This document shows positions 6,351-61,638 of a DNA stretch of 64,000 nucleotides, piece after piece. Source of the stretch: Spartobacteria bacterium (lineage in GTDB: Bacteria; Verrucomicrobiota; Verrucomicrobiia; Chthoniobacterales; UBA6821). The stretch lies in NCBI GenBank assembly GCA_947487385.1, contig CANKWU010000007.1, positions 7,894 through 71,893 on the forward strand, in the 5' to 3' direction. The notes beneath the pieces were generated by a model. The model searched no databases. It saw only the letters and a list, made by a program, of their open reading frames with translations, and was not told where the DNA came from. How positions within the stretch are numbered: the stretch's first letter is position 1; each line of letters opens with the position of its first letter. Position numbers and translations under genes: made by a program.

Positions 6351-7522
6351 GCATTTTGCGGGCCTACAAAAACCGGGGCAACCTGCCTGCGTTCCTGCTC
6401 TTTTTGTTTGCTCTGGCACTTGCCGTGGGAGGCATCGCCTTCTGGCGACTCATGCAACCCAAGCCTCTCCCACAAGTCACCCAGACACTTTCCGGTTGGT
6501 CGGCTTTGCAGGATCAAAAAGATCGTTTTTCCCATTCCTTGGCCTCAGATCGTTCACTGGAAACGATCGATCGTGAATTCACCGCTCTAGTCGAGCATGT
6601 GATCCCCTCTGTGGTCAGCATCGCTACCACGACGGCACCGGATCGCGATGTGTTGATCCGTCAATTCTTCGGCCTTAGTGGTGGTAATGTCAGCCAAAAT
6701 AGCAAGATGGGCTCCGGCATGATTGTCTCCCCGGAGGGGTACATCGTCACCAACTGGCATGTCGTCAAAGGCGCCTCCCAAGTCACAGTTCAGCTGAGTG
6801 ACGGCCGTTCTCTTCCTGCTGCGATCGCTGGCGCCGATCAACGTTCTGATATTGCTGTCCTGAAGGTTGCCACCGAAGGGCTCGAACCAATCGCCTTCGG
6901 CGACTCTGAATTGGTCAAGGTCGGCCAGATGGTCTTTGCCGTGGGCAATCCCTTCGGGCTACAGGAAACTGTAACTCAGGGGATCATCAGTGCCAAGGGA
7001 CGCCGTACCGTCAGTGAGGCCGCCAATGAGTTTTTCCAGACAAGCACCACCATTAACCCCGGCAACTCGGGCGGCCCCCTGGTCGACATCCACGGGAAGG
7101 TCATCGGCATCAACAACTTCATTATCAGCAGGAGTGGCGGCTCTGAGGGGATCGGATTTGCGATTCCCTCCAATGTGGCGCGGCGGGTCTACGAGGACAT
7201 CGTTCAGCGCGGCCGTGTTATCCATCCCTGGTTCGGAGTCGTGATGCGCCCCTTGAATGCCAGCCTTGCAAAACAGCTCGGACTACCGAATTCGAATGGA
7301 GCCTTGGTCGCCGCCACGCTTGCTGGATCGCCCGCGGAGCGGAGCGGACTTCTAGGCGGCGATGTGATTGTTTCCTTTAACGGTCACCCGATCCGTGATG
7401 GGAAAGACCTGCGCAATCGCGTGGCAGAGGCTGAAGTCGGCCCTCCCACAGGCCTAGGGGTTCTCCGTGGGGGAAGACCACTCCAGCTCAGCGTCACGAT
7501 GATTGAGGAGCCGACTGATTGA
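6347..7522 (+). CDS. HtrA/DegP-family serine protease with PDZ domain
   Basis: ATGA overlap with the upstream gene. Catalytic motifs are TNWHVV (His), DIAVLKV (Asp) and GNSGGPLVD (Ser). The C-terminal region is PDZ-like (GALVAATLAGSPAERSGLLGGDVIVSFNG). Confidence 0.9.
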   Translation: MSILRAYKNRGNLPAFLLFLFALALAVGGIAFWRLMQPKPLPQVTQTLSGWSALQDQKDRFSHSLASDRSLETIDREFTALVEHVIPSVVSIATTTAPDRDVLIRQFFGLSGGNVSQNSKMGSGMIVSPEGYIVTNWHVVKGASQVTVQLSDGRSLPAAIAGADQRSDIAVLKVATEGLEPIAFGDSELVKVGQMVFAVGNPFGLQETVTQGIISAKGRRTVSEAANEFFQTSTTINPGNSGGPLVDIHGKVIGINNFIISRSGGSEGIGFAIPSNVARRVYEDIVQRGRVIHPWFGVVMRPLNASLAKQLGLPNSNGALVAATLAGSPAERSGLLGGDVIVSFNGHPIRDGKDLRNRVAEAEVGPPTGLGVLRGGRPLQLSVTMIEEPTD

Positions 7523-7631: not shown

Positions 7632-8378
7632 ATGCTAGCAGATCCCTACACCCGAACATCAAGTGCCCCGCGCAGCGCTCGCGTCCGAGTTGCTCTCTGG
7701 GCCCTTGGGATCATCGCCCTCATCGAGTTGATCCTTGCCGCGATCGCTCTGGCTCCCCGTTTTGTTTCCGAAATACGATCCGGCACGTTCCCAGTGCAGG
7801 CTCTGGAAGCAGTATCATTGACCAATTCTGCTGCTCCTTTGATCCAACCAGCAACTCCACAGTTTCCTGCCTCTTTGCCTGTCAACCAGCAGGCCACAGC
7901 CACTTTACCAGTCAACTCCACGCTTAAGAAGATCCTAGCCGATCAGAAGGTAGAGACACCTTTCAGACAGCAACCTGCGGATGCGGCAGTCAGCGGGGAG
8001 ACATCCCTTAAGATCGTCAACGCTCGCCTCACCGATACCGAGGATGGGTCCAAGAGGCTTCAAGTAGCCATCAAGGCAAGCTCTCAGGAACAAATCGACA
8101 GCGCCCAGGAAAAGGTTCAGGTCTATTTCTATGATCAGGATGGCGATGAGATTGTTCCAAGCAAGGCACAGGTAACCTCCAAGTGGCTCAACTGGCAAAA
8201 TGGGGAGCCCCAGCTGGTTGAGGTGACTTATCTCCCCGAATCAATTGATCCCAGTGTCAAGTTTGCCGGATATGTCATCGCAGTCTATTACAAGGGGGAT
8301 CTTCAGGACTGCCGTGCTCAACCCGTACGGCTTCAGAAGCTTTTTGAGCCCAAGTACTATATCGGAACAGACGAGTGA
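7632..8378 (+). CDS. Hypothetical membrane-anchored protein
   Basis: The track ORF 7503..8378 starts at TTG inside htrA, so the first ATG at 7632 (MLADPYTR...) is preferred. It has one TM (VALWALGIIALIELILAAIALAP). No family recognised. Confidence 0.5.
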   Translation: MLADPYTRTSSAPRSARVRVALWALGIIALIELILAAIALAPRFVSEIRSGTFPVQALEAVSLTNSAAPLIQPATPQFPASLPVNQQATATLPVNSTLKKILADQKVETPFRQQPADAAVSGETSLKIVNARLTDTEDGSKRLQVAIKASSQEQIDSAQEKVQVYFYDQDGDEIVPSKAQVTSKWLNWQNGEPQLVEVTYLPESIDPSVKFAGYVIAVYYKGDLQDCRAQPVRLQKLFEPKYYIGTDE

Positions 8379-9382
8379 TGCATCGCATGACTACTGCCAT
8401 GCCCCGGGCGACCTCCCTCGCTCTCGCCTTATTTCTGGTGCTGATCGCTTTTCCACCGACTACCCTACACTCTCAAATCCTTGTTGATCTCTCCATCAAG
8501 AGGGTGCTGTATCTCGCCTACGAGCCGCTTCTGGCCACCGTGCGGATTTCCAATCTCTCCGGCAACCCTCTTCTGCTCGCCGATGTGGAGGGAAAGAAGT
8601 GGTTTGGCTTCCAGGTGGATACACTCGACGGGCGCCCCATCCCCCCTTCCAACCCCGACTACGAGATTGAACCGATCAAAGTGGGTCCCGGAGAGTCGAT
8701 CACCCGCACCATTAATCTGGTCCAACTTTACCCGCTTGCCGACTTCGGCTCTTATCGGATCAGGGCAAGCGTCTACTCTGTCGAGCTCTCCAACTATTTC
8801 AGCAGCCCTTCGCTTACCATCGAAATTACCGAAGGACGCCTTCTCTGGCAGCAGACCGTAGGAGTGCCTGCAAGGGATGGAATCCGGGGCGGCAGCCGCA
8901 CTATCAGTCTCCTCTCCCATCGCCTGACAGAGAGGACGGATCTCTACTTGAGGATCGAGGACAAGGAAGCCGGCATAGTCTACTGCACCCACCGGCTCGG
9001 GGACTACATCTCTTACGGAAAGCCCGATATCATGCTCGACGCCTCCAACACCATTCATGTTCTTCAGAACAACATCCCCCACGAGTTTATCTACACGAAG
9101 GTCGGTCTGGACGGTAAAATTCTGGACCAGCTTTCTTACACCGCTCCCAAATCACGTCCCCAACTCAAACGCTTCGAAGACGGCACCATCTCTGTGGTGG
9201 GGGGCGCCCTGTTTGATCCAAAAGCCACCCCGACTCCTGGCATCATTCCGAATCTCTCCGACCGCCCCGTACCGCTGCCAACTCCCGAGATGCCAGCCTC
9301 TACATCTGAGAAGGGCAAGAAAAAGAAGCCTAACCCGTTGCCAACCCCTGCTCCAGTTCCTGCCCCCGTTCACATCGACTAA
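8378..9382 (+). CDS. Hypothetical secreted protein with Pro/Lys-rich tail
   Basis: GTGATG overlap with the upstream stop (8375-8380). Signal peptide (ATSLALALFLVLIAF). The C-terminus reads PVPLPTPEMPASTSEKGKKKKPNPLPTPAPVPAP. No family recognised. Confidence 0.55.
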   Translation: MHRMTTAMPRATSLALALFLVLIAFPPTTLHSQILVDLSIKRVLYLAYEPLLATVRISNLSGNPLLLADVEGKKWFGFQVDTLDGRPIPPSNPDYEIEPIKVGPGESITRTINLVQLYPLADFGSYRIRASVYSVELSNYFSSPSLTIEITEGRLLWQQTVGVPARDGIRGGSRTISLLSHRLTERTDLYLRIEDKEAGIVYCTHRLGDYISYGKPDIMLDASNTIHVLQNNIPHEFIYTKVGLDGKILDQLSYTAPKSRPQLKRFEDGTISVVGGALFDPKATPTPGIIPNLSDRPVPLPTPEMPASTSEKGKKKKPNPLPTPAPVPAPVHID

Positions 9383-11983: not shown

Positions 11984-12691
11984 TTATTTGCCACGCTTAT
12001 ACTCAATGGTTCCTTTGCCCTTGAGAGGTTGGGAATCGTAGATCTGCTTGCCGTCCTCAAGGATAGATAGCGTTACGTCCGTATCATCCTCCGTACTTGT
12101 TGCTGTGATACTTTCAAAATATTGGCCGGGAAAATTACAGCTTGGAGGGTTGGAGAATATCTTTTCCTGATCAACCCCACTCGTATTCCACCTGGCATCT
12201 ACTTTCATTTTCTCCATGCCTTTACCCATAACCACAAAAGTCAATGTTTTGTCTTTAGGACCACTCCATCCGAGATCCGTACTCTTTGTCGTAATGAGAT
12301 AGTACTTTCCATTGATGACGGCATAGCCATCGCCACCAGATGTCATTCCATTTTCACCTGCGGGGGCGCAGGTAACTTTAATTTGGCCTGATGGAGGGTA
12401 CGTAGGCTCGTATTTTTTCCCGTTTACAATATTGACGAAACTTTTTCCTTCGGAGTTTGACTCAAATTTCACATCTGTAATTTTTCCGTTGGAAAAATGA
12501 AACCCCACAACAGCTTCAAGCATCTTTTTATCTGCCTCTGAACAACCATCCGTGTAGTAAAAGGATAAAAGCTTGGCTTTATCTTTTTGTTCAATCGCCC
12601 TTCGATAATTTGCCAAAAACTCTTCGCCGGTATCCGCTAGAGCTAGTTTTGGTAACAAAAAGACCAATAAAAGAGGGAAAACTTTTTTCAT
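11984..12691 (-). CDS. Hypothetical secreted protein (AT-rich gene)
   Basis: The internal ATG at 12691 gives the signal peptide MKKVFPLLLVFLLPKLALA. The sequence is visibly more AT-rich than its neighbours. No family recognised. Confidence 0.55.
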   Translation of the reverse strand: MKKVFPLLLVFLLPKLALADTGEEFLANYRRAIEQKDKAKLLSFYYTDGCSEADKKMLEAVVGFHFSNGKITDVKFESNSEGKSFVNIVNGKKYEPTYPPSGQIKVTCAPAGENGMTSGGDGYAVINGKYYLITTKSTDLGWSGPKDKTLTFVVMGKGMEKMKVDARWNTSGVDQEKIFSNPPSCNFPGQYFESITATSTEDDTDVTLSILEDGKQIYDSQPLKGKGTIEYKRGK

Positions 12692-46100: not shown

Positions 46101-47303
46101 ATGAATCCAACGCGTGAGGAGGGACTGCAAACGCTCGAGCGTTTTTTACCCCATGCCGGTATCAGCTATAGAGAGAGGCGTAATTTTGTCCCCGGAGTTG
46201 TTTCGGGGCTTTCCCCCTACGTGCGTCACCGGTTGATCACGGAAGCTGAAGTCGTCGGAGCAGTTCTTCAAAAGCATTCTTTTCAAGAAGCCGAGAAATT
46301 CATCCAGGAAATCTGCTGGCGTACCTATTGGAAGGGATGGCTGGAGATGAGGCCCTCGGTTTGGTCGGAGTATCTTGAGGCACTTCAAACGCTTAAAATC
46401 CAAATGCAAGAGGAGCCTGATGTGAATGATCGAGTCCAATCAGCCGAAAGTGGTGTTACAGGGATTGGTTGCTTTGATGACTGGGCCAACGCACTCCGTG
46501 AGACCGGATATCTTCACAACCATGTCAGGATGTGGTTTGCGAGCATCTGGGTTCATACGCTGCGTCTGCCATGGCAACTGGGAGCTGACTTCTTTATGAG
46601 GCACCTGCTGGACGGAGACCCAGCTTCCAATACCCTCTCGTGGCGCTGGGTCTGCGGACTGCAGACGCAGGGAAAGGTCTATGTGGCGACTGCCGAGAAT
46701 ATCGAGCGCTTCACGGATGGGCGTTATACTCCGCGCGGGCTTCTGGCTCAGGAAGCTCCGATGATGAGGGAGTCTTTCACAAATCACCCGCCACTCCCAC
46801 TGGCTCATCCCGATCAGCATGTTTCGGGTGAAAAAACTCTTCTGCTCATCACTGAGGAGGATCTCCACCCGGAGGATTGGGGTATTCCTCGTAGCGATGT
46901 GTTGGGAATCGTTCTTCTCGATTCGGCTGAGGCATATCCCGGGATCGCAGCGCTCCCCGTGGGATGGAAGAGCCACGCGCTCGAGGGAGCTGCCGCACGA
47001 TTGGCCGGTGAATTTCAGTGCCCTATCACGTGCCTCCAGAGTGATAAGGAATCACTATCCGCTAAACTGCGCACCCTTCTGCAGGAGTATGGAGCAGGCT
47101 GCTACAGCACCATGACTCCTCCCGTTGGCCCGACACTCAGCCTCATTGATCCGGTGCTTTCGGAACTGGTGAAGGAGGGTGTTACTGTCAGAAGACTGCG
47201 GCGTTCTTGGGATGACGCATTCTGGCCGCACGCGACCCATGGGTTTTTTAAGTTGAAGGAGCGGATTCCATCCGTTCTGAAGCAGCTGTCATTGATCCCT
47301 TGA
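46101..47303 (+). CDS. Photolyase-like protein with FAD-binding domain at the N-terminus (possible permuted CPF)
   Basis: LSPYVRHRLIT, TGYLHNHVRMWFASIW and LLDGDPASNTLSWRWVCG all lie in the first ~200 aa. The C-terminal ~185 aa read like a photolyase alpha/beta domain (KTLLLITEEDLHPEDW...). Confidence 0.65.
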   Translation: MNPTREEGLQTLERFLPHAGISYRERRNFVPGVVSGLSPYVRHRLITEAEVVGAVLQKHSFQEAEKFIQEICWRTYWKGWLEMRPSVWSEYLEALQTLKIQMQEEPDVNDRVQSAESGVTGIGCFDDWANALRETGYLHNHVRMWFASIWVHTLRLPWQLGADFFMRHLLDGDPASNTLSWRWVCGLQTQGKVYVATAENIERFTDGRYTPRGLLAQEAPMMRESFTNHPPLPLAHPDQHVSGEKTLLLITEEDLHPEDWGIPRSDVLGIVLLDSAEAYPGIAALPVGWKSHALEGAAARLAGEFQCPITCLQSDKESLSAKLRTLLQEYGAGCYSTMTPPVGPTLSLIDPVLSELVKEGVTVRRLRRSWDDAFWPHATHGFFKLKERIPSVLKQLSLIP

Positions 47304-47339: not shown

Positions 47340-47588
47340 TCACTCCAAGTCCTCATGATTCGAGGGCTTCAAACGGCGCTCCAGAAGCTTCCGGTGTTTT
47401 GTCACCCGGCCGCCAACTCGTTTTCTCCACATGGTAAAACTGGATGGCTTAAGTTCGCGGCGCATGATGTCGATCACCTCATGCTCTGCAAGACCAGTGC
47501 GTGTTTTTATTTCCTCAAACGTGGTTCGATCTTCCCACGCCAGACGAATCACCAAAGAAATCTGATCGCTTTGAATTTTTCCCTTCAT
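47340..47588 (-). CDS. TIGR03643/DUF2805 family small protein (photolyase-associated)
   Basis: RLAWEDRTTFEEIKTRTGLAEHEVIDIMRRELKPSSFTMWRKRVGGRVTKH matches the family consensus as I recall it. Confidence 0.7.
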   Translation of the reverse strand: MKGKIQSDQISLVIRLAWEDRTTFEEIKTRTGLAEHEVIDIMRRELKPSSFTMWRKRVGGRVTKHRKLLERRLKPSNHEDLE

Positions 47589-48348: not shown

Positions 48349-49560
48349 TTAGTCTAGGCTGGAGAGACGATCCTGCAGCGGTGAGATGGGATGGAAAACA
48401 GCCGTCTTGGTTGGGGAAAGGGAGATGTCGGTGGCGTTGAGTCGTTCAACCTTGGATAAGATGTCGCGTACCTCTGCAAGAGTTGCCAAGGAGGCTAGGA
48501 ATGAATCGGCACGCCGCGTCCAGAGCCTATTCAGTGTTGGCCAGACAAAGAGGGCCAAAAAGCACCATGTCGTCATAACGGCTGCTCCGCATAGCCCTGC
48601 CTGCACCGGATTTATGCTTGGCAGAAGAGATGCCGCTAAAATTCCCAGCAATGTCCAAACCGCCACGATGACCAGGATTAGGATCCACGCTCCCGATCTG
48701 CGGTAATATTCCTCACGGGCTACAAGAAGGGCAGCCTCACGCGGGGTGAGCCATTGCGCGACTGTGGTCGAGAGGGAAAGGACTCCCCGGGGGGAGATGC
48801 AACCGTTCACCGTTTCTTCATCGCCATGATCGAACCAGCGAACTGGTCTCAAGGTGATCTTCAGCGGTTTCAGCTCGAACTCAAGATTCTCCTCAAAAGC
48901 TTTCTCTAAAGAGCCTGCATCAGATGGACGGCCAGCAGGGACAAACAGAAAAAGGATCAAAATGAACGCTCCCGCGGCGAGCAGCATCGGCACAGCCCAT
49001 TGCCGAGGAACTTGATGAAACGCGGCGAAGAAAAGAAACCCAGTCCAGAGCCCCGCTAACGTGAGCAACCGGTTTCGCACCCAATCCTTCAGCCAACCAG
49101 TTTCATATTCCACGATACGATTCGCCGCACTTTCCAGGGCGCTGCCCATTAGAAGGTCAAAAGGGAGGTTCGCCAGAGTTATCAGCAGCGCCACCGAAAG
49201 TAAAACCGCCGGGACCGCTACTGGACCGGAGAGGCCACTTGCCCACCACGATGCACTGAGGGCAAGCCCCCAGATCAGCGCAAGATTGGCTCCGATCGAT
49301 GTGATGCCCGCCCAAAGACGAACGCGCTGGTAGTTACTAGGATCCACCGTGGTAGTTTGTGCAATAGAAAAGGCCGGGTCAATGACCCGGTCGCCGTCGG
49401 TTCGCTGCTTTGAAAAGACCCTCTTAACCCTGGAGAGGCAGTCGTGCGTCACTATGATAGCTCCTGCGTTGGAGGTTGTTGGATGTTTCGAATCTTTATT
49501 AGCCCAAGTATCCCAACTCTCCTCCACATGAACAACCTCCAGAAACTTCACACCTAACAC
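48349..49560 (-). CDS. Polytopic membrane protein, M48/M56-peptidase-like but lacking HExxH
   Basis: Multiple TMs. LTPREAALLVAREEYYRRSG occupies the position and context of the ...E..AVLAHElgH... zinc motif, and the C-terminus FHPISPLQDRL resembles the HPP...R tail of M48 peptidases. The true start is uncertain. Confidence 0.45.
   Translation of the reverse strand: MLGVKFLEVVHVEESWDTWANKDSKHPTTSNAGAIIVTHDCLSRVKRVFSKQRTDGDRVIDPAFSIAQTTTVDPSNYQRVRLWAGITSIGANLALIWGLALSASWWASGLSGPVAVPAVLLSVALLITLANLPFDLLMGSALESAANRIVEYETGWLKDWVRNRLLTLAGLWTGFLFFAAFHQVPRQWAVPMLLAAGAFILILFLFVPAGRPSDAGSLEKAFEENLEFELKPLKITLRPVRWFDHGDEETVNGCISPRGVLSLSTTVAQWLTPREAALLVAREEYYRRSGAWILILVIVAVWTLLGILAASLLPSINPVQAGLCGAAVMTTWCFLALFVWPTLNRLWTRRADSFLASLATLAEVRDILSKVERLNATDISLSPTKTAVFHPISPLQDRLSSLD
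49268..49390. repeat. Left copy of a 123-bp diverged direct repeat (within the 5' part of the membrane-protein gene)
   Basis: It matches 54542..54664. The first 29 bp are identical, then 72 of 94 match with no indels (manual count). Confidence 0.85.
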
Positions 49561-49682
49561 TCTGGTTGAAACGTTACCCTTACACTGTCTTAAACATTAG
49601 TGACTCCACAGGTTCTCCATTCTTAGATATGGCTGTCTCAATAAGATTTCTTTTGATAAGGAATCCCTGCCTACCAACCTTT

Positions 49683-51227
49683 ATGAAGATCGCATTATTC
49701 CCTGCGCGAATCCTTTTCGCCATTCTTGGACTGCTCATCACCGCACACTCAACGCACGCGGCCGATAAACAGAAAAAGCCCAACATTCTCATCATCTGGG
49801 GTGATGACATCGGTCAGTTCAATCTCAGTGCAGTTAACCGCGGCATGATGGGCTACCGCACACCGAATATCGACCGTATCGCCAGCGAGGGTGCTTATTT
49901 TACCGATTGGTATGGCCAGCAATCCTGCACGGCAGGACGCGCAGCCTTTATCACAGGCCAGTCACCGATCCGCACCGGCCTCACCAAAGTGGGTCTTCCA
50001 GGTGCCCCTGAAGGGATGAAAAAAGAGGATCCCACCATCGCGACCCTTCTTAGAGCGCAGGGCTATGTCACGGGCCAGTTCGGTAAGAATCACCTCGGGG
50101 ATCGGGACGACATGCTGCCGACCAGTAATGGATTTGATGAGTTTTTTGGGAATCTCTATCACCTGAATGCCGAGGAGGAGCCTGAAAACCCCGACTATCC
50201 GAAGAGTCCCGAGTTCAAAAAGAAGTTCGCCCCACGCGGCGTGATTCACAGTTATGCCGACGGCCGCATCAAGGACACAGGCCCACTGAACAAAAAACGC
50301 ATGGAGACGATTGACGACGAGGTCAACGAAAAGACCTTCGCCTTCATGGAGCGTGCGGTGAAGGAGGGTAAGCCTTTCTTTCTTTGGTGGAACTCAACAC
50401 GTATGCACATCTTCACGCACTTGAAGAAGGAGTCCGATGGCAAGACGGGACTCGGCATTTATGCGGATGGTATGGTTGAGCACGACGCCCATGTCGCTCA
50501 GTTGCTTGCTAAACTCAAGGAGCTTGGTCTTGAGGAGAACACCATCGTGATGTACTCCAGCGACAATGGTGCCGAGTCCTTCACCTGGCCAGATGGAGGT
50601 ACCACCATGTTCCGTGGGGAGAAAAACACTCAGTGGGAGGGAGGATATCGCGTGCCGACTTTCATCCGCTGGCCTGGGGTCATTAAGCCCGGCACCGTGA
50701 TTAACGATATCGGGTCCCATGAAGACATGTTGCCCACACTGCTTGCCGCTGCGGGAGAACCAGCTGTAAAGGAAGAGTTGCTCAAGGGAATGAAGGTTGC
50801 AGACACCACTTACAAAGTGCACTTGGATGGCAATAACCTCCTACCATCACTAAAAGGAGAGGCGCCGTGGCCTCGCAAGGAATTCATCTATTGGACCGAT
50901 GACGGTAGCGTTGCGGCCCTTCGGTACGATAACTGGAAGATCACCTTCCTGAAACAAAATGCCCACGGCATGAATGTCTGGCTTCATCCGTTTGAGGCGC
51001 TTAGGGCGCCAATGGTCACCAACCTTCGCATGGACCCCTTCGAACTCGCTCCGGACATTGGCATGGGTTACCAACGCTGGTATCTAGAGCACATGTTTGT
51101 TATCGCACCCGCCGCAAATTATGTGGGGGGATGGTTGCAGAGTTTCCGTGAGTTCCCTCCACGTCAAAAGCCCGGCAGCTTCAATCTTGATCGTGTGATG
51201 GAGTCCGTAACCTCGGCGAATGAGTAA
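49683..51227 (+). CDS. Arylsulfatase (Cys-type, formylglycine-dependent)
   Basis: The signal peptide starts at ATG 49683. PNILIIWGDDIG and the FGly motif SCTAGRAAFITG (C-x-A-x-R) are present, with GKNHLG as the sulfatase signature 2. Confidence 0.9.
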   Translation: MKIALFPARILFAILGLLITAHSTHAADKQKKPNILIIWGDDIGQFNLSAVNRGMMGYRTPNIDRIASEGAYFTDWYGQQSCTAGRAAFITGQSPIRTGLTKVGLPGAPEGMKKEDPTIATLLRAQGYVTGQFGKNHLGDRDDMLPTSNGFDEFFGNLYHLNAEEEPENPDYPKSPEFKKKFAPRGVIHSYADGRIKDTGPLNKKRMETIDDEVNEKTFAFMERAVKEGKPFFLWWNSTRMHIFTHLKKESDGKTGLGIYADGMVEHDAHVAQLLAKLKELGLEENTIVMYSSDNGAESFTWPDGGTTMFRGEKNTQWEGGYRVPTFIRWPGVIKPGTVINDIGSHEDMLPTLLAAAGEPAVKEELLKGMKVADTTYKVHLDGNNLLPSLKGEAPWPRKEFIYWTDDGSVAALRYDNWKITFLKQNAHGMNVWLHPFEALRAPMVTNLRMDPFELAPDIGMGYQRWYLEHMFVIAPAANYVGGWLQSFREFPPRQKPGSFNLDRVMESVTSANE

Positions 51228-51242
51228 GGGAGAAGACTCACG

Positions 51243-52226
51243 GTGATCCACCGCAACCTCTGTACGCTGGCATGCATTCTCTGGTCTGCGCTGGCGACCC
51301 ATGCGAGCGAGCCCCTGCCATCATGGAACGATAGTTCCTCGAGGAGGGCGATCCTCTCCTTTGTGGCGAAAGTCACCGATAAATCGGGAGGCAGTTTTGT
51401 GCCCCCCGCCCAGAGGATCGCCGTATTCGACAACGACGGGACACTCTGGCCAGAAAACCCGATTCCATTTCAGATGTCATTCACCATTGAGGAGATAAAA
51501 CGACAGCTCCCTCAGCACCCCGAATGGAAGTCCGATAAGGATATTCAGGCTGCTCTTTCGGGTGACTTCCCCCCTCTTCTTCGAGACCATTTCAGGGGAC
51601 TGTTACACATCATCTCTGTTGCAGGCTCCGGCATGACTACCGACGAGTTTGCTGCAAGCGTCCGTCGTTGGTTTGCCTCTGCCAAGCATCCACGATTTAA
51701 CAAGGCTTACGACGGCCTTGCGTACCAACCCATGCAGGAGTTATTGGCCTACCTGAGAGCCAATGGATTCAAAAACTACATTGTTTCCGGCGGAGGGTTG
51801 GATTTCATGCGCGCCTTCAGTGAGCGAGTTTACGGCGTTGTGCCGGAACAGGTCGTGGGATCCCACACTGCTGTCGTCTATGAATTGAGGGATAGCGGTC
51901 CCGTACTGGTCAAAACCATGAACCGTCTCTTTGTGGATGACGGCGCCGCCAAGCCAGAGGCCATTCATCAATTCATCGGACGCCGGCCTATTGCTGCCTT
52001 TGGCAATAGCGACGGAGATAAAGAGATGCTGGAATACACCACTATCGGGAATCCTCTCCCATCCCTCGGCCTGCTTATCCACCACACCGATAAGGAGAGG
52101 GAGTATGCCTATGACGCCAAGCCACAGAGCAGTGGAAAACTTATTACCGCTCTAGCAGAGGCCCCCCAGCGCGGCTGGGTTGTGACTGATATGAAAAAGG
52201 ACTGGCGGTTGATCTTTTCGGAGTAG
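51243..52226 (+). CDS. Secreted HAD-superfamily hydrolase/phosphatase
   Basis: GTG start and signal peptide. HAD motif I is VFDNDGTLW and motif IV-like is FGNSDGDKEM. Confidence 0.65.
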   Translation: MIHRNLCTLACILWSALATHASEPLPSWNDSSSRRAILSFVAKVTDKSGGSFVPPAQRIAVFDNDGTLWPENPIPFQMSFTIEEIKRQLPQHPEWKSDKDIQAALSGDFPPLLRDHFRGLLHIISVAGSGMTTDEFAASVRRWFASAKHPRFNKAYDGLAYQPMQELLAYLRANGFKNYIVSGGGLDFMRAFSERVYGVVPEQVVGSHTAVVYELRDSGPVLVKTMNRLFVDDGAAKPEAIHQFIGRRPIAAFGNSDGDKEMLEYTTIGNPLPSLGLLIHHTDKEREYAYDAKPQSSGKLITALAEAPQRGWVVTDMKKDWRLIFSE

Positions 52227-52253
52227 TGTGTGCATCGTTCCACTGCTGAAAAT

Positions 52254-53492
52254 ATGAGATCCATCCCGTTTTTATTATTACTCGGCTTACCTGTTCTATC
52301 TGCTCAGGTGGCCCCTCAGTCCAATTACGAAGTGCTTGAGCCAGTTCCTGCAGCAAACTTCATCCCTGCTGTCCTGATGACGAATACACACTGCACCGTC
52401 GCACCTATGGCGCAGACCGATGGCCTCCACCTTACCTATACTCTTCAGAGTCCTGCTGGCACTGAATCAATCGTCGGCACACAGAGCCTCATCACACGCG
52501 TCACCGAGATGAAAGCACTCGTAGCACTTGATGAAATCGATAATTCGGAGGAGTTTGGAAAGGCGCTGCTCAAGGCGGGTGCCGAAAAAGTCGGGAGCGT
52601 GAGGGATGTCGTGAAGGATCCACTTGGAACCGTCCAACGCCTCCCCCTCGGAGCCTCCCGACTCTTGGGACGCGTCTCCACCTCTGTTAAAAATGCTGCT
52701 GAAGGGAATGCCGATCCGCGCGCTGGAGCACAGCAAGTTCTGGGAGTCAGGAGAATGAAGAACGAGTTGGCCGCTCGTTTCGGAGTCAGCCCCTACTCAC
52801 GGAATGCCTTGCTTCAGAATAAGCTGGATGCCACTGCTCGGGCGATGGCGGGCGGCGCTCTCGTCGTGAACCTCTCAGGTCTCATGTTCACTGGAGGAGT
52901 TGGCACTGCCATTTCCGTAGTTGGCGTAAATCAGACACTTCAGCGCACGCTCATTGAGTCGACACCCGAGGAAATGGCAGTCAAGAACCGTGCTATACTT
53001 CTGGCGCTCAAGGCCGCTCCCGATGCGGTGGAAGGCTTTCTCTCAAATCCCTCCCTCTCACCTTGGCAGAAGACGATTCTCACTGCCGAACTGAAGGATA
53101 TTGGTCTGAATCCAGATCCCTTTCTTAGGCTTGCATCGAAGCCCGCAACCCAAGAGGAGGTTCTTGATGAGATGCAGATCATGCAAATTTTACTCAAACA
53201 CCATAAAGAGATCGCCCCCATTGTCTCCATTATCTCCATAAGTGAGGTCGCCGGCGCGCTTGCCGCACTAGATGCAAACGGCACCTTGGTCACACCAGTT
53301 AGCGCAGATCTTATTCTCTGGAGTGCAACGAAAGAGTCTGGTGCCGATGCGCTCCTGAAAATGGCAAAGGAAGATCCGAGGGTAAAACACGTGACTCTTG
53401 TCACAGATGGTCTCGTCTCGGCCCGTGCCATGGAGGAATTCGACAAACGGGGAATCTTCGCAACCCCCCAAGCTCTCGGACCCCTACGCTAA
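52254..53492 (+). CDS. Hypothetical secreted protein
   Basis: ATG 52254 gives the signal peptide MRSIPFLLLLGLPVLSAQ. No family recognised. Confidence 0.5.
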   Translation: MRSIPFLLLLGLPVLSAQVAPQSNYEVLEPVPAANFIPAVLMTNTHCTVAPMAQTDGLHLTYTLQSPAGTESIVGTQSLITRVTEMKALVALDEIDNSEEFGKALLKAGAEKVGSVRDVVKDPLGTVQRLPLGASRLLGRVSTSVKNAAEGNADPRAGAQQVLGVRRMKNELAARFGVSPYSRNALLQNKLDATARAMAGGALVVNLSGLMFTGGVGTAISVVGVNQTLQRTLIESTPEEMAVKNRAILLALKAAPDAVEGFLSNPSLSPWQKTILTAELKDIGLNPDPFLRLASKPATQEEVLDEMQIMQILLKHHKEIAPIVSIISISEVAGALAALDANGTLVTPVSADLILWSATKESGADALLKMAKEDPRVKHVTLVTDGLVSARAMEEFDKRGIFATPQALGPLR

Positions 53493-53503
53493 CTAGCTTC
53501 AGA

Positions 53504-54604
53504 ATGATTCGCTCCTTGCGGTTCTCAATGCTGGGGGTGCTTTTATTGCTGGGATGTCATCCCTCTGCACCATCCAGCGGTATGGTTTTGATCCCCGGTG
53601 GTGACTTCTTGATGGGCTCAGACGCTCCGTATGCTTTACCCAACGAGAGACCGGCTCATCAGGTGAAGGTAAAGCCCTTCTTCATGGACATTCATGCGGT
53701 CACCAATGCCGAATTTGCAAAATTCGTGAAAACCACCGGCTATATCACCGTTGGAGAGCGACCCGTCGATTGGGAGGAATTAAAAAAACAAGTGCCACCA
53801 GAAACGCCTAAGCCACCCGCCGAGACCCTTGCGCCTGGGTCGTTGGTTTTTCATCCAACCACGGGGCCTGTTGATTTACGTGATATGTCTGCGTGGTGGC
53901 AATGGCTCAATGGCGCCTCGTGGTCTCATCCAGAGGGACCCGACAGCAATATCATCGGCAGGGAAAACCACCCAGTGGTGCACATTGCTTGGGAGGATGC
54001 AAAAGCCTATGCGGCTTGGGCTGGGAAACGCCTCCCCACCGAGGCTGAATGGGAATTTGCAGCCAGGGGCGGAGTCAACGGAGAGCGCTACGCATGGGGT
54101 AACCAAGAGAGTCCTGACGGGCGTTTTATGCTGAATCGTTGGACCGGACAATTTCCCTACCACGATGATGCCTCGGATGGTTTTGCCGGCACCTCGCCAG
54201 TCGGCACTTTCCCATCAAATAGCTTCGGGCTTTATGACATGGGAGGCAATGTGTGGAACTGGTGCAGCGATATCTATCGCGCCGATGCCTTTGCTGAGGA
54301 GGCCAAAGCCGGCCTTGTTTGTTGTGACCCCACCGGGCCCAAAACCTTACAGGGTGAGAAAGCCGTTCTAGGTGACCCTTCCCCACCCATGGTTCCAGGA
54401 GCAGAACGAAGAGTGACCAAAGGAGGGTCTTTTCTCTGCCATCCCGACTACTGCGAAAGCTATCGCCCCTCCGCAAGACGTGGCACTCCACCTGACACGG
54501 GGAGTAGCCATGTTGGCTTTCGCTGCGCCAAGGATGCGAGTCCCCAGATCAGCGCAAGATTGGCTCCGATGGAGGTGATGCCAGACCAGAGGCGGGCGCG
54601 TTGA
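53504..54604 (+). CDS. Formylglycine-generating enzyme (SUMF1/FGE family sulfatase maturase)
   Basis: HPVVHIAWEDAKAYAAWAGKRLPTEAEWEFAARGG, RVTKGGSFLC and GFRCA. The last ~22 codons run into the right repeat copy. Confidence 0.9.
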   Translation: MIRSLRFSMLGVLLLLGCHPSAPSSGMVLIPGGDFLMGSDAPYALPNERPAHQVKVKPFFMDIHAVTNAEFAKFVKTTGYITVGERPVDWEELKKQVPPETPKPPAETLAPGSLVFHPTTGPVDLRDMSAWWQWLNGASWSHPEGPDSNIIGRENHPVVHIAWEDAKAYAAWAGKRLPTEAEWEFAARGGVNGERYAWGNQESPDGRFMLNRWTGQFPYHDDASDGFAGTSPVGTFPSNSFGLYDMGGNVWNWCSDIYRADAFAEEAKAGLVCCDPTGPKTLQGEKAVLGDPSPPMVPGAERRVTKGGSFLCHPDYCESYRPSARRGTPPDTGSSHVGFRCAKDASPQISARLAPMEVMPDQRRAR

Positions 54605-54664
54605 TAGTTGACTGGATCCACCGGGATAGTTTGTAAAAAAGAGAAGGCCAGGTCATTGACCCGG
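54542..54664 (-). pseudogene. Orphan fragment homologous to the 5' region of the 48349..49560 gene (right copy of the direct repeat)
   Basis: The minus-strand translation is RVNDLAFSFLQTIPVDPVNYQRARLWSGITSIGANLALIWG. The intact gene reads RVIDPAFSIAQTTTVDPSNYQRVRLWAGITSIGANLALIWG. No downstream continuation exists. Confidence 0.75.
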
Positions 54665-54701
54665 CCTTCTTCGTGAATTTGCGCTCTGGGAGAGCTGAAG
54701 A

Positions 54702-54905
54702 CTATTTTCCCTCGGCGTACCGCGCAAGACGGTTGGAGAGAATCAGGAAGGTCGGGGCCCAGAGGCCGACGAAGATCCCGAAGAGTTCGCCATGGGTACG
54801 AACCTCAAAGCTCACATCCTTGCCGCCGGCATAATACCAGATGGCGATGGAGGCGAGGACTGAGGCGAGTCCTAGAACGAAACAGAGGTGACTGAGTTGT
54901 TTCAT
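54702..54905 (-). CDS. Small two-TM membrane protein
   Basis: 67 aa with two hydrophobic helices (LCFVLGLASVLASIAIWYY; LFGIFVGLWAPTFLILS). No family recognised. Confidence 0.45.
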   Translation of the reverse strand: MKQLSHLCFVLGLASVLASIAIWYYAGGKDVSFEVRTHGELFGIFVGLWAPTFLILSNRLARYAEGK

Positions 54906-56392: not shown

Positions 56393-57331
56393 TCAGATGA
56401 GCTGACTTTGCTTCTTGGCTCTTAAGAGAACCCAAGCAAGAAATACTCCTCCAAGGATCAAAAGCCAGAATTCCCCCGGCTCGGGAACGGAATCCAGGAT
56501 GGCGGAGCGGTAAGAGGCCACATCGATGCTGTAGGTAAGGTTTCCAAAGACGGCTGTGTTGTCTGGCTGCCCCGAATAGTTCTCTACCAGATCCATGATG
56601 CCAGCGAGTTGATAAGAGCCGTCGTTCATCAGCACGAAAACCCCTCCGCCGGAGTCACCAACGGCAGCCTGAGCCTCGTTAGGGATCCCGGAATCGAAAG
56701 TTGTCTGGATCATGCTCGTGGAGTTCACCGTTACCACTCCGTCTGCCTGATTGCTTCCCCAACGCTTCGAGTTTGAGGAGAGTTGCTTGTATCCTGAGGC
56801 ATTGAAAAAAACCGGGGGGCGTACCTCACTCCATGTGTAGGGGGTGGAACCCGTGTTGACGTTCCAGTAGGTCCTGGAATCGGCGCGGTCCTTTCCGTTG
56901 CCGATCATCGTCAACGTTTCGCCAGTCGCAGGAGATGTTCCCGCCAGTGTGAGATTGCTCAGCAGGGAAAGGCCGGTCCCTTGGCCCACTGTGATCTGAT
57001 AGGCATAGAGGTCGAGGCCCGCGATATTGGTGCCGCTCCCTGATACTGACTGATATACGGCACCGTTGATGGAGAAATTACGGCTTCCCCCATCGTTATA
57101 GACATGGCCTGCGGTAAGCACCCAGTTCGCGCCGCCATAAGCTCCAAGATAGACGCCCGAACCGCCGTTCACCATCCCCACATAGTTCCACCCCAGATCG
57201 CCGTTAGACCCGGAGGGGGCGTTTGTATTACCCGAACCGTTGCCCGAACCGATCACGACGGCGAACGATGAGGTTGACGAGGTGACCGTGAGGACAACCA
57301 ACAGGAAAATACAGAGTTTTCTAATGCTCAT
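56393..57331 (-). CDS. Trypsin-like serine protease with C-terminal PEP-CTERM sorting signal
   Basis: Signal peptide, then VLTAGHV (His) and AAVGDSGGGVF (Ser). The C-terminus is VPEPGEFWLLILGGVFLAWVLLRAKKQ, i.e. the PEP motif, a TM and a basic tail. Confidence 0.75.
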   Translation of the reverse strand: MSIRKLCIFLLVVLTVTSSTSSFAVVIGSGNGSGNTNAPSGSNGDLGWNYVGMVNGGSGVYLGAYGGANWVLTAGHVYNDGGSRNFSINGAVYQSVSGSGTNIAGLDLYAYQITVGQGTGLSLLSNLTLAGTSPATGETLTMIGNGKDRADSRTYWNVNTGSTPYTWSEVRPPVFFNASGYKQLSSNSKRWGSNQADGVVTVNSTSMIQTTFDSGIPNEAQAAVGDSGGGVFVLMNDGSYQLAGIMDLVENYSGQPDNTAVFGNLTYSIDVASYRSAILDSVPEPGEFWLLILGGVFLAWVLLRAKKQSQLI

Positions 57332-61563: not shown

Positions 61564-61638
61564 GCGCGATTAGCTCAGTGGTAGAGCGCTTGCTTCACAC
61601 GCAAGAAGTCGCAGGTTCGAACCCTGCATCGCGCACCA
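61564..61638 (+). tRNA. tRNA-Val (anticodon CAC), CCA encoded
   Basis: Manual cloverleaf: acceptor GCGCGAT/ATCGCGC, D stem GCTC/GAGC, anticodon stem CTTGC/GCAAG with loop TTCACAC, and T arm GCAGG-TTCGAAC-CCTGC. 75 nt. Confidence 0.9.

Follow-up and report, generated by a model that had tools for sequence, protein, structure and literature searches.

We analyzed a sulfatase–maturase gene cassette in a 64,000-nucleotide stretch of DNA from a Spartobacteria bacterium (the window; positions 7,894 to 71,893 of contig CANKWU010000007.1), whose numbering is used below unless another locus is named. The cassette separates a membrane-protein gene from small67, a gene for a 67-residue protein, and a short segment that includes the start of the membrane gene stands on both sides of it. 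Comparison with related genomes identifies the cassette as an insertion, which we propose to have arisen through illegitimate recombination with staggered joints. The locus comprises the following features:

48349–49347, minus strand: membrane-protein gene, intact, 332 residues, multi-pass; GTG start at 49347, from which homologs of 332–337 residues align
49268–49390, minus strand: left (intact) repeat copy, made up of the inner 7 bp of a hairpin stem (49374–49390), a leader (49348–49373), and the GTG with the first 27 codons (49347–49267)
49391–49682, plus strand: cassette-borne segment of 292 bp, the sulfatase upstream region, seen only in cassette-bearing loci
49683–51227, plus strand: Cys-type S1 arylsulfatase, 514 residues, with a signal peptide and the motif CTAGR (Cys82); PF00884, 1.8e-50; PDB 7aj0, 3.7e-57
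51243–52226, plus strand: secreted HAD-family hydrolase, 327 residues; PF12710; PDB 4ovy, 1.1e-99
52254–53492, plus strand: secreted protein without known function, 412 residues, ATG at 52254; member of a 43-member family
53504–54604, plus strand: formylglycine-generating enzyme (FGE) with a lipoprotein-type signal; PF03781, 1.9e-86, the match ending at residue 343; PDB 6s07, 2e-79
54542–54664, minus strand: right (orphan) repeat copy, with the native leader, a GTG at 54621, and 27 codons of the putatively original membrane-gene allele, truncated
54642–54670, minus strand: complete intrinsic terminator of small67, with a T-run after its 13-bp stem; the top terminator-like site in the scan
54702–54905, minus strand: small67 (67 residues), the native upstream neighbor of the membrane gene, which it adjoins in the cassette-less loci named below

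The two repeat copies lie 5274 bp apart in direct orientation (49268–49390 and 54542–54664) and are identical at 101 of 123 positions (82%), with no indels and with an identical core formed by the first 29 nt. The top ungapped direct-repeat score between 47000 and 57000 is 57, compared with 12–16 in 20 dinucleotide-preserving shuffles; alignment and shuffle test thus agree that this pair, first noticed in a sequence-only reading of the window, is real. Also correct on rechecking are the minus-strand translations given there for both copies, the count of exactly four plus-strand genes between them (sulfatase, HAD hydrolase, the protein without known function, and FGE), and the description of the right copy as an orphan gene fragment, which we can place in its native position beside small67 and whose minus-strand frame continues for 25 codons into the antisense of FGE before reaching a stop. 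A repeat search stretches the pair to 138 nt at 80% identity (49262–49399 and 54536–54673), and the 6 nt added at its start (49262–49267 and 54536–54541) are the FGE gene's own 3′ end, a microhomology match. The same reading derived the repeat from the membrane-protein gene; this holds for the last 27 codons, which are the only coding part, but the repeat starts inside the small67 terminator stem, and its remaining 43 nt are terminator hairpin and leader (~26 nt).

The hairpin, GGCCGGGTCAtTGACCCGGCC followed by a T-run, lies 28 nt after the small67 stop and is kept in all relatives. It has the G+C-rich stem-loop and the U-run after a gene that characterize a rho-independent terminator, which we predict it to be, and its two copies are the two best terminator-like sites of the region. 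The native stem has 13–14 bp, and RNA folding gives −23.7 kcal/mol (z = −4.1) for the orphan copy and −29.5 kcal/mol (z = −5.4) for the cassette-less locus L003. In the intact copy, 7 inner bp are all that is left of the stem (z = −1.7), the 5′ arm of its native form being cut by the left joint of the cassette. Public gene calls give the membrane gene as 403 residues (48349–49560), extended through the leader, the hairpin, and cassette-borne DNA. This reading frame is over-extended, since homologs have 332–337 residues and start at the equivalent of GTG 49347: they align only from residue ~69–72 of the 403-residue frame, and an alignment with 12 relatives puts the start at that GTG. The Pfam family Peptidase_M48_N (PF16491) matches some homologs of the membrane protein (P0041 and P0066), and no Pfam family matched the window's own copy.

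An insertion at a site that is empty in related genomes

Window proteins were placed by tblastn on 21 related genome loci, the relatives being metagenome-assembled genomes (MAGs) of Chthoniobacterales/"Spartobacteria". At least 12 of these relatives (L002–L009, L011, L013, L014, and L019) lack the cassette and carry p387 (minus strand), small67, the membrane gene, AlkB, and DUF2805 in this order, with a gap of ~85 bp between small67 and the membrane gene. The cassette occupies that same site in seven contigs from separate samples and assemblies (the window, L012, L023, L024, L025, L038, and L039), and its left joint, between ...GGCGA and CCGGGTCA on the minus strand, has the same position in all six contigs that span it (all but L038). 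Between small67 and the orphan copy the sequence is unbroken, just as in the cassette-less genomes, and the GTG of the orphan lies 80 bp from the small67 stop, as it does there. These data confirm that the cassette is an insertion between small67 and the membrane gene, as the sequence-only reading had supposed when it named synteny in relatives as the check.

The window belongs to a metagenome scaffold (its sequence is identical to part of a 228-kb ENA scaffold), and a chimeric join at the 29-nt core could in principle mimic such an arrangement. All seven carriers, which stem from various samples and assemblers (ENA, JGI, and NCBI MAGs) and include contigs of 228 kb and 511 kb, nevertheless show the same architecture, with junctions that agree at base level; joints shared in this way rule out an assembly artifact, to which we attach practically no credence, and favor one ancestral event.

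AlkB is 94–95% identical among cassette-bearing contigs and at most 79% identical in all cassette-less ones, which fits a narrow clade of carriers. This distribution bears on the alternative that the cassette state is old and that cassette-less relatives lost it through recombination between the direct repeats, which would restore a clean single copy. Repeats of 123–227 nt would permit scarless RecA-type excision, and the right flanks of L003 and L006 are as close to the window as that of L025 (p387 95%, small67 98.5%); the AlkB of L003 and L006 is distant (77%), however, hence these loci are not recent excision products, and the orphan, together with a truncated foreign gene described below, would still demand an insertion. 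We regard loss as quite improbable.

Pfam and NCBIfam show no integrase, recombinase, or transposase among the cassette genes and their neighbors. No tRNA lies near the cassette, the sole tRNA of the window being at 61564, and there are no terminal inverted repeats, the only inverted repeat that spans the cassette being the hairpin palindrome inside the direct repeats. A transposon or insertion-sequence insertion was considered and rejected: it would lack a transposase, would have only that palindrome as inverted repeat, and would have produced a duplication of 123 nt here and ~225 nt in L025. The composition of the cassette is native-like, with a tetranucleotide distance at the 72nd percentile of 5-kb windows and a GC content of 0.537 vs. 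0.547. The sequence-only reading had counted native composition against acquisition; the composition is indeed native, but the insertion stands, and a cassette that resembles the rest of the window is what would be expected of a related Verrucomicrobium donor.

The right junction and the staggered joints

The right junction occurs in two states. In L025, the natural stop of FGE is followed by a spacer of ~170 bp, by the 5′ part of a nitroreductase gene with a frameshift (~58 codons; PF00881, 1.6e-9, profile positions 1–46 of 167), and by the antisense of a longer orphan, which spans the stretch between the hairpin and roughly codon 61 of the membrane gene (~224 nt with indels). The alignments to nitroreductase and to the membrane gene overlap by 13 nt, GGAGGTTTGCCAG, at 12620–12632 of L025; the overlap matches each parent at 11–12 of its 13 positions and contains a perfect 7-nt core, GGAGGTT. 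The other six carriers (the window, L012, L023, L024, L038, and L039) lack ~455 bp that are present in L025. The missing segment is bounded by FGE ...GAT GCGAGTCCC and by the same 8–9-mer in antisense membrane-gene codons 26–28, and the 9-mer is present in the orphan-type (type-B) allele of the membrane gene. Two positions of the window correspond to these junctions:

49164–49170: GGAGGTT in the intact membrane gene, antisense, at about codon 61; counterpart of the putative original end of the duplicated segment
54536–54544: GCGAGTCCC, apparent scar of the secondary ~455-bp deletion, located by aligning the window, L012, L023, and L024 against L025

Because the L025 state restores both the natural end of FGE and colinear membrane-gene sequence, the alignments strongly support it as older than the state in the window. 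The ~455-bp deletion fused FGE to 20 antisense-encoded residues and a stop and trimmed the repeat, so that the 123 nt which the sequence-only reading took for the original duplication appear to be the shortened form of one that was originally about 224–227 nt long. In L038 (12150–12160, equivalent to 54545–54547 of the window), CAG has changed to TAG at the FGE/orphan fusion point, which gives a near-natural end, ...AKDASP and stop; with a stop exactly at the point of fusion, the FGE tail looks dispensable. The GTG start of the orphan has changed to TTG in this contig.

We propose that ~5.6 kb from another Verrucomicrobial chromosome came to lie between small67 and the membrane gene in one ancestral event. 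This piece would have comprised the sulfatase upstream region, the sulfatase, HAD hydrolase, 412-residue protein, and FGE genes, the spacer, and the first ~58 nitroreductase codons. It would have entered without an element-encoded recombinase, with one joint at GGAGGTT, between nitroreductase and membrane-gene codon ~61, and the other ~225 nt farther upstream, within the 5′ arm of the small67 terminator hairpin. Since the recipient joints are staggered, the segment from the hairpin to codon 61 came to stand on both sides of the insert: the copy beside small67 would have become the orphan, and the copy ahead of the gene body would have left the membrane gene intact. The most likely mechanism is either a single replicative template switch, with exit at GGAGGTT and re-entry at the hairpin, or two illegitimate recombinations of incoming DNA with the same outcome. 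Later, on the branch that leads to the window, a ~455-bp deletion between the 8–9-nt GCGAGTCCC repeats would have removed the last three codons and the stop of FGE, the spacer, the nitroreductase fragment, and orphan codons ~29–61. Independently, homologous recombination would have swapped the intact membrane gene for a diverged allele of another lineage.

Illegitimate integration was tested through its mark of short microhomology at the novel (right) joint, which is present there, the GGAGGTT match being perfect. Arbitrary insert ends, one of them inside the nitroreductase gene, and a joint with microhomology point to illegitimate recombination or template switching rather than to a homologous flanking gene. 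The sequence-only reading had favored acquisition by recombination through just such a gene; these features, together with the allele pattern described in the next section, point elsewhere.

The same joints bear on two further explanations. Site-specific integration of a genomic island, with the repeats as attL and attR and with an element that supplied a replacement 5′ end of its target gene, would account for a core that is identical while the homologous sequence after it has diverged, and for a target gene that was kept intact. Yet the cassette and the DNA around it hold neither an integrase or other recombinase nor a tRNA, a truncated nitroreductase gene forms one end of the insert, the cassette genes occupy ordinary chromosomal contexts elsewhere, and the composition is not atypical. 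Furthermore, the 29-nt core marks no crossover boundary, the repeat's left edge being the secondary deletion scar, and we give this explanation very little weight. A tandem duplication of the whole membrane gene, with the body of one copy then replaced by the cassette, had been raised in the sequence-only reading and would likewise leave a 5′ fragment beside an intact copy. It appears highly improbable: no relative has two membrane genes in tandem, the DNA upstream of the intact hairpin is cassette-borne and includes neither a membrane-gene 3′ end nor traces of AlkB, and the orphan ends at the nitroreductase microhomology. A short duplication of ~225 nt that formed together with the insertion would, in effect, be the staggered insertion proposed here.

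Source of the insert and divergence of the two copies

Loci of the source type were reached through the 43-member family of the 412-residue protein and have the following gene orders:

L029: SelO, sulfatase (90%), 412-residue-type protein (69%), FGE (82%), ~160-bp spacer, intact nitroreductase (79% to the L025 fragment), peptidase M15
L030: sulfatase (97.6% to the window), HAD hydrolase internally deleted, 412-residue-type protein (83%), FGE mostly deleted, nitroreductase (93% to the L025 fragment)
L031 and L032: S8 peptidase, sulfatase, HAD hydrolase, 412-residue-type protein, FGE
L034: sulfatase, FGE
L036 and L037: sulfatase, HAD hydrolase, FGE

The order FGE, ~160-bp spacer, intact nitroreductase in L029 and L030 indicates that the insert was taken from a chromosomal locus of the L029/L030 kind, with one cut falling within the nitroreductase gene. 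None of the sampled source-type loci has a membrane-gene homolog beside the cassette.

The two window copies of the repeat differ in a manner typical of coding sequence under constraint: over the 27 shared codons, 11 of 15 differences fall at third positions and the ratio of nonsynonymous to synonymous substitution rates (dN/dS) is 0.07, a pattern seen in no other frame. The window and L012 are 88–97% identical from AlkB onward and 51–78% identical across the membrane gene, with switch points at the two ends of that gene; the window departs from the L012 allele across this gene only. The intact copy of the window is of the L002/L003 type (88–90% identical to those, and 96–98% to both L023 copies), while its orphan is 93–95% identical to the orphans of L024, L038, and L039 and has as its closest functional allele the intact gene of L025 (88%). 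The orphan-type (type-B) leader stands in both copies of L012, L024, and L039 and also in the intact copy of L025. Within single genomes, the two copies are 80% identical in L025, 82% in the window, 90% in L024 and L039, and 96% in L023, where they look homogenized.

The simplest reading of these alleles is that the recipient's own segment was duplicated, that the orphan approximates the original allele, and that homologous recombination subsequently put other alleles in place of the intact gene, accompanied by a degree of gene conversion from copy to copy. The differences would be biased toward synonymous sites because the functional alleles of separate lineages had diverged; they are not a product of decay, and a donor homolog is not required to explain them. 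The sequence-only reading had the copies diverge as functional homologs before truncation, and the purifying signature agrees with it on that point, but the pattern in L025, L023, and L012 is better explained by a later allele replacement of the intact gene.

A homology-facilitated acquisition remains the alternative to be weighed against this history. Donor DNA would have carried the cassette linked to a diverged membrane-gene homolog, with a crossover in that homolog and an illegitimate joint at GGAGGTT at the other end, so that the intact copy came from the donor and the orphan from the recipient. The window copies are indeed different alleles with a dN/dS of 0.07, microhomology is found at the joint of one end only, as in homology-facilitated illegitimate recombination (a concept that we take from the reference list of PMC8116780), and the region recombines often. 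Against this, the left joint cuts the small67 terminator stem, so the donor would already have needed that joint, which pushes the problem one step back; the intact copy of L025 is orphan-type, the two copies share one leader in L012, L024, and L039, and the L023 copies are 96% identical; and the sampled source-type loci carry no membrane-gene homolog next to the cassette. The allele pattern favors duplication of the recipient's own sequence over a donor anchor, and we consider the homology-facilitated route rather unlikely.

Taken as a whole, the account of a staggered illegitimate insertion, a later deletion, and a later allele replacement is in our judgment probably correct, although several points weigh against it. 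The empty sites, both joints, the intermediate state, the source-type gene order, and the mosaic of alleles are seen directly in the sequences, whereas the template switch, the initial identity of the copies, and the succession of events are a reconstruction. For the left joint, the donor sequence is missing from the sampled loci, L030 having a scaffold gap there and no sampled locus sharing the 292-bp segment 49391–49682, and without it both a left microhomology and the absence of a membrane-gene anchor in the donor are unproven. The 82% identity of the window copies, taken alone, fits a donor-derived homolog. The initial identity of the copies is argued by parsimony across highly mosaic lineages, and the greater age of the L025 state is likewise deduced from its structure. 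Finally, all data are metagenome contigs or MAGs, and the left flank of L038 could be chimeric.

The membrane gene itself has deeply diverged alleles, with ~63% amino acid identity between genomes whose neighboring genes are 94–100% identical (L012, L024, L025, and L039 compared), which suggests that it has repeatedly been replaced by other alleles, possibly under diversifying selection. By extension, the site could be a recombination hot spot, centered on the membrane gene, at which lineages exchange alleles under diversifying selection; the orphan would exchange sequence with the intact gene, and the repeats would make the operon a reversible, RecA-excisable module that is gained and lost within populations. 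We think this extension unlikely.

Two neighboring genes also vary among the relatives. The FAD_binding_7 (cryptochrome/photolyase-like) gene at 46101–47303 is 59–62% identical to its counterparts in L012, L024, L025, and L039 and 70–73% identical to those in L003, L006, L007, L008, L010, and L013; these identities run opposite to those of the adjoining genes and thus mark a second mosaic segment. The gene at 56393–57331, for a trypsin-like protein with a PEP-CTERM-type C-terminus, is variable: it has a 61–72% identical copy in L007, L024, L025, L038, and L039, only a 29–30% identical gene on the other strand in L012 and L013, and no match between p387 and the aminotransferase gene in L003–L006, L008, and L019.

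Predicted functions and comparison with known systems

The cassette is predicted to encode an exported Cys-type sulfatase and an O2-dependent FGE that converts its Cys82 to formylglycine. The PF00884 match covers residues 72–397 of the 553-residue sulfatase reading frame, and 7aj0 is the best solved match; no NCBIfam equivalog scored above its cut-off. For the maturase, the top PDB matches are all FGE/SUMF1 (6s07, 2e-79), with PorK/GldK reaching only 1e-24, and NCBIfam matches to GldK, SenA, and EgtB fall far below their cut-offs. The catalytic cysteine pair (C-x3-Y-C) is present, GGSFLCHPDYCESYR aligning to GGSFLCHESYCNRYR of 6s07. Motif, Pfam and PDB matches, and the cysteine pair all agree with the earlier view that the CTAGR sulfatase and the FGE maturase form a matched pair. 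As in other bacterial Cys-type sulfatase–FGE pairs (FGE 6s07, 2q17, and 1y1e; sulfatase 7aj0), there is an S1 domain, a C-x-A-x-R motif, a copper-binding cysteine pair, and a common gene direction; in contrast to them, a HAD hydrolase and the exported 412-residue protein lie between the two genes, and the FGE has a lipoprotein-type signal and a 20-residue non-native tail. Signal peptides of the cassette proteins were judged by eye.

The native C-terminus of this FGE is not intact. Its natural part ends at ...GFRCAKDASP (~54544), and the last 20 codons and stop (54545–54604) are antisense orphan sequence, which replaces the last three codons and the natural stop. Natural ends are ...GFRCAKDTSPSG and stop in L025 (...AKDTSPSG) and ...AKDAAPAK and stop in L026, and the Thermomonospora curvata FGE structure ends at GFRCAAD. 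Because the folded domain is complete and L038 cuts the tail off with TAG, the function of FGE is probably retained in the window. Public gene calls for FGE (53504–54604) carry the chimeric tail, a pitfall which, like the extended membrane gene, was created by the insertion.

The HAD hydrolase gene has been deleted in L012, L024, and L039, where only its last 23 codons are left, and is therefore dispensable. The 412-residue secreted protein has no match in Pfam, NCBIfam, or the PDB, and its AlphaFold2 model (predicted local distance difference test score 75.7) gave no Foldseek match in the PDB. It recurs with sulfatase, HAD hydrolase, or FGE genes across several chromosomal contexts (L026, L029, L031, and L033) and could be an uncharacterized partner of the sulfatase system.

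Phage 21 and e14 integrate into Escherichia coli icd via an integrase and defined att sites, replacing the 3′ end of the gene and leaving behind a duplicated, diverged gene end. The present locus resembles these cases in its intact target, in the diverged orphan end that flanks the insert, and in differences that are mostly synonymous; it departs from them in the lack of a recombinase, in arbitrary insert ends, in the duplication of a 5′ end, and in a divergence that would have come afterwards through allele exchange. With illegitimate integration of foreign DNA, as represented in the references of PMC8116780, it shares arbitrary ends, the lack of a dedicated recombinase, and a joint at a short G+C-rich microhomology (GGAGGTT here). 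Here, by contrast, the event would be natural and ancient and is reconstructed from genomes rather than observed in an experiment, the joints are staggered so that the target is duplicated instead of deleted, and a homologous anchor is only hypothetical. Microhomology-mediated template switching corresponds to the model of microhomology-mediated break-induced replication/fork stalling and template switching (MMBIR/FoSTeS; Hastings et al. 2009, PMC2621351). That model likewise features junction microhomology, a template segment inserted from a distance, and a flanking duplication that results when re-entry falls behind the exit; it was made for eukaryotic copy-number variants, whereas here the template would come from another genome or a distant locus, re-entry would fall at a terminator hairpin, and the mechanism is deduced from the joints.

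The locus thus offers a clean natural case of a working operon gained by bacteria without obvious mobile elements, in uncultured freshwater Verrucomicrobiota, for which empty sites, both joints, an intermediate, a source-type locus, and later decay could all be recovered from environmental genomes. It suggests that a staggered, microhomology-mediated insertion can spare its target gene by duplicating the 5′ end, and that diverged flanking repeats need not signal a foreign homolog, since allele replacement after the event yields the same picture. For annotation there is a practical lesson in the over-extended membrane gene (403 vs. ~332 residues) and the chimeric FGE tail. The case is unusually well resolved yet conceptually ordinary, an operon gain by what we take to be illegitimate recombination, and leaves the specialists' view of horizontal gene transfer unchanged.

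Decay of the cassette varies by lineage. At 9135–11417 of L030, FGE is almost wholly deleted and the HAD hydrolase gene has lost an internal part. At 7440–7600 of L038, which has a different left flank, the sulfatase breaks off at residue 87, directly behind CTAGR, where an Acyl_transf_3 gene is fused to it in-line; the contig is either truly rearranged or chimeric. Upstream of the sulfatase, L024 (7883–8146) and, at the same place, L012 and L039 carry an extra insert of ~330 bp that the window, L023, and L025 lack. Within it, 84 nt separate the arms of a perfect 27-nt inverted repeat, TGAATCTGGAACTCAGGAACTCAGGAA, and CGAATCTT occurs at both edges; by these marks the insert looks like a small non-autonomous element resembling a miniature inverted-repeat transposable element. 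A DUF2805 gene lies 1–3 kb from sulfatase, 412-residue-type, or FGE genes in four differing contexts (47340–47588 of the window, 10414–10659 of L026, 13355–13606 of L031, and 2149–2400 of L033). The other copies are 62–63% identical to that of the window, and the proximity may be a coincidence or reflect an old linkage.

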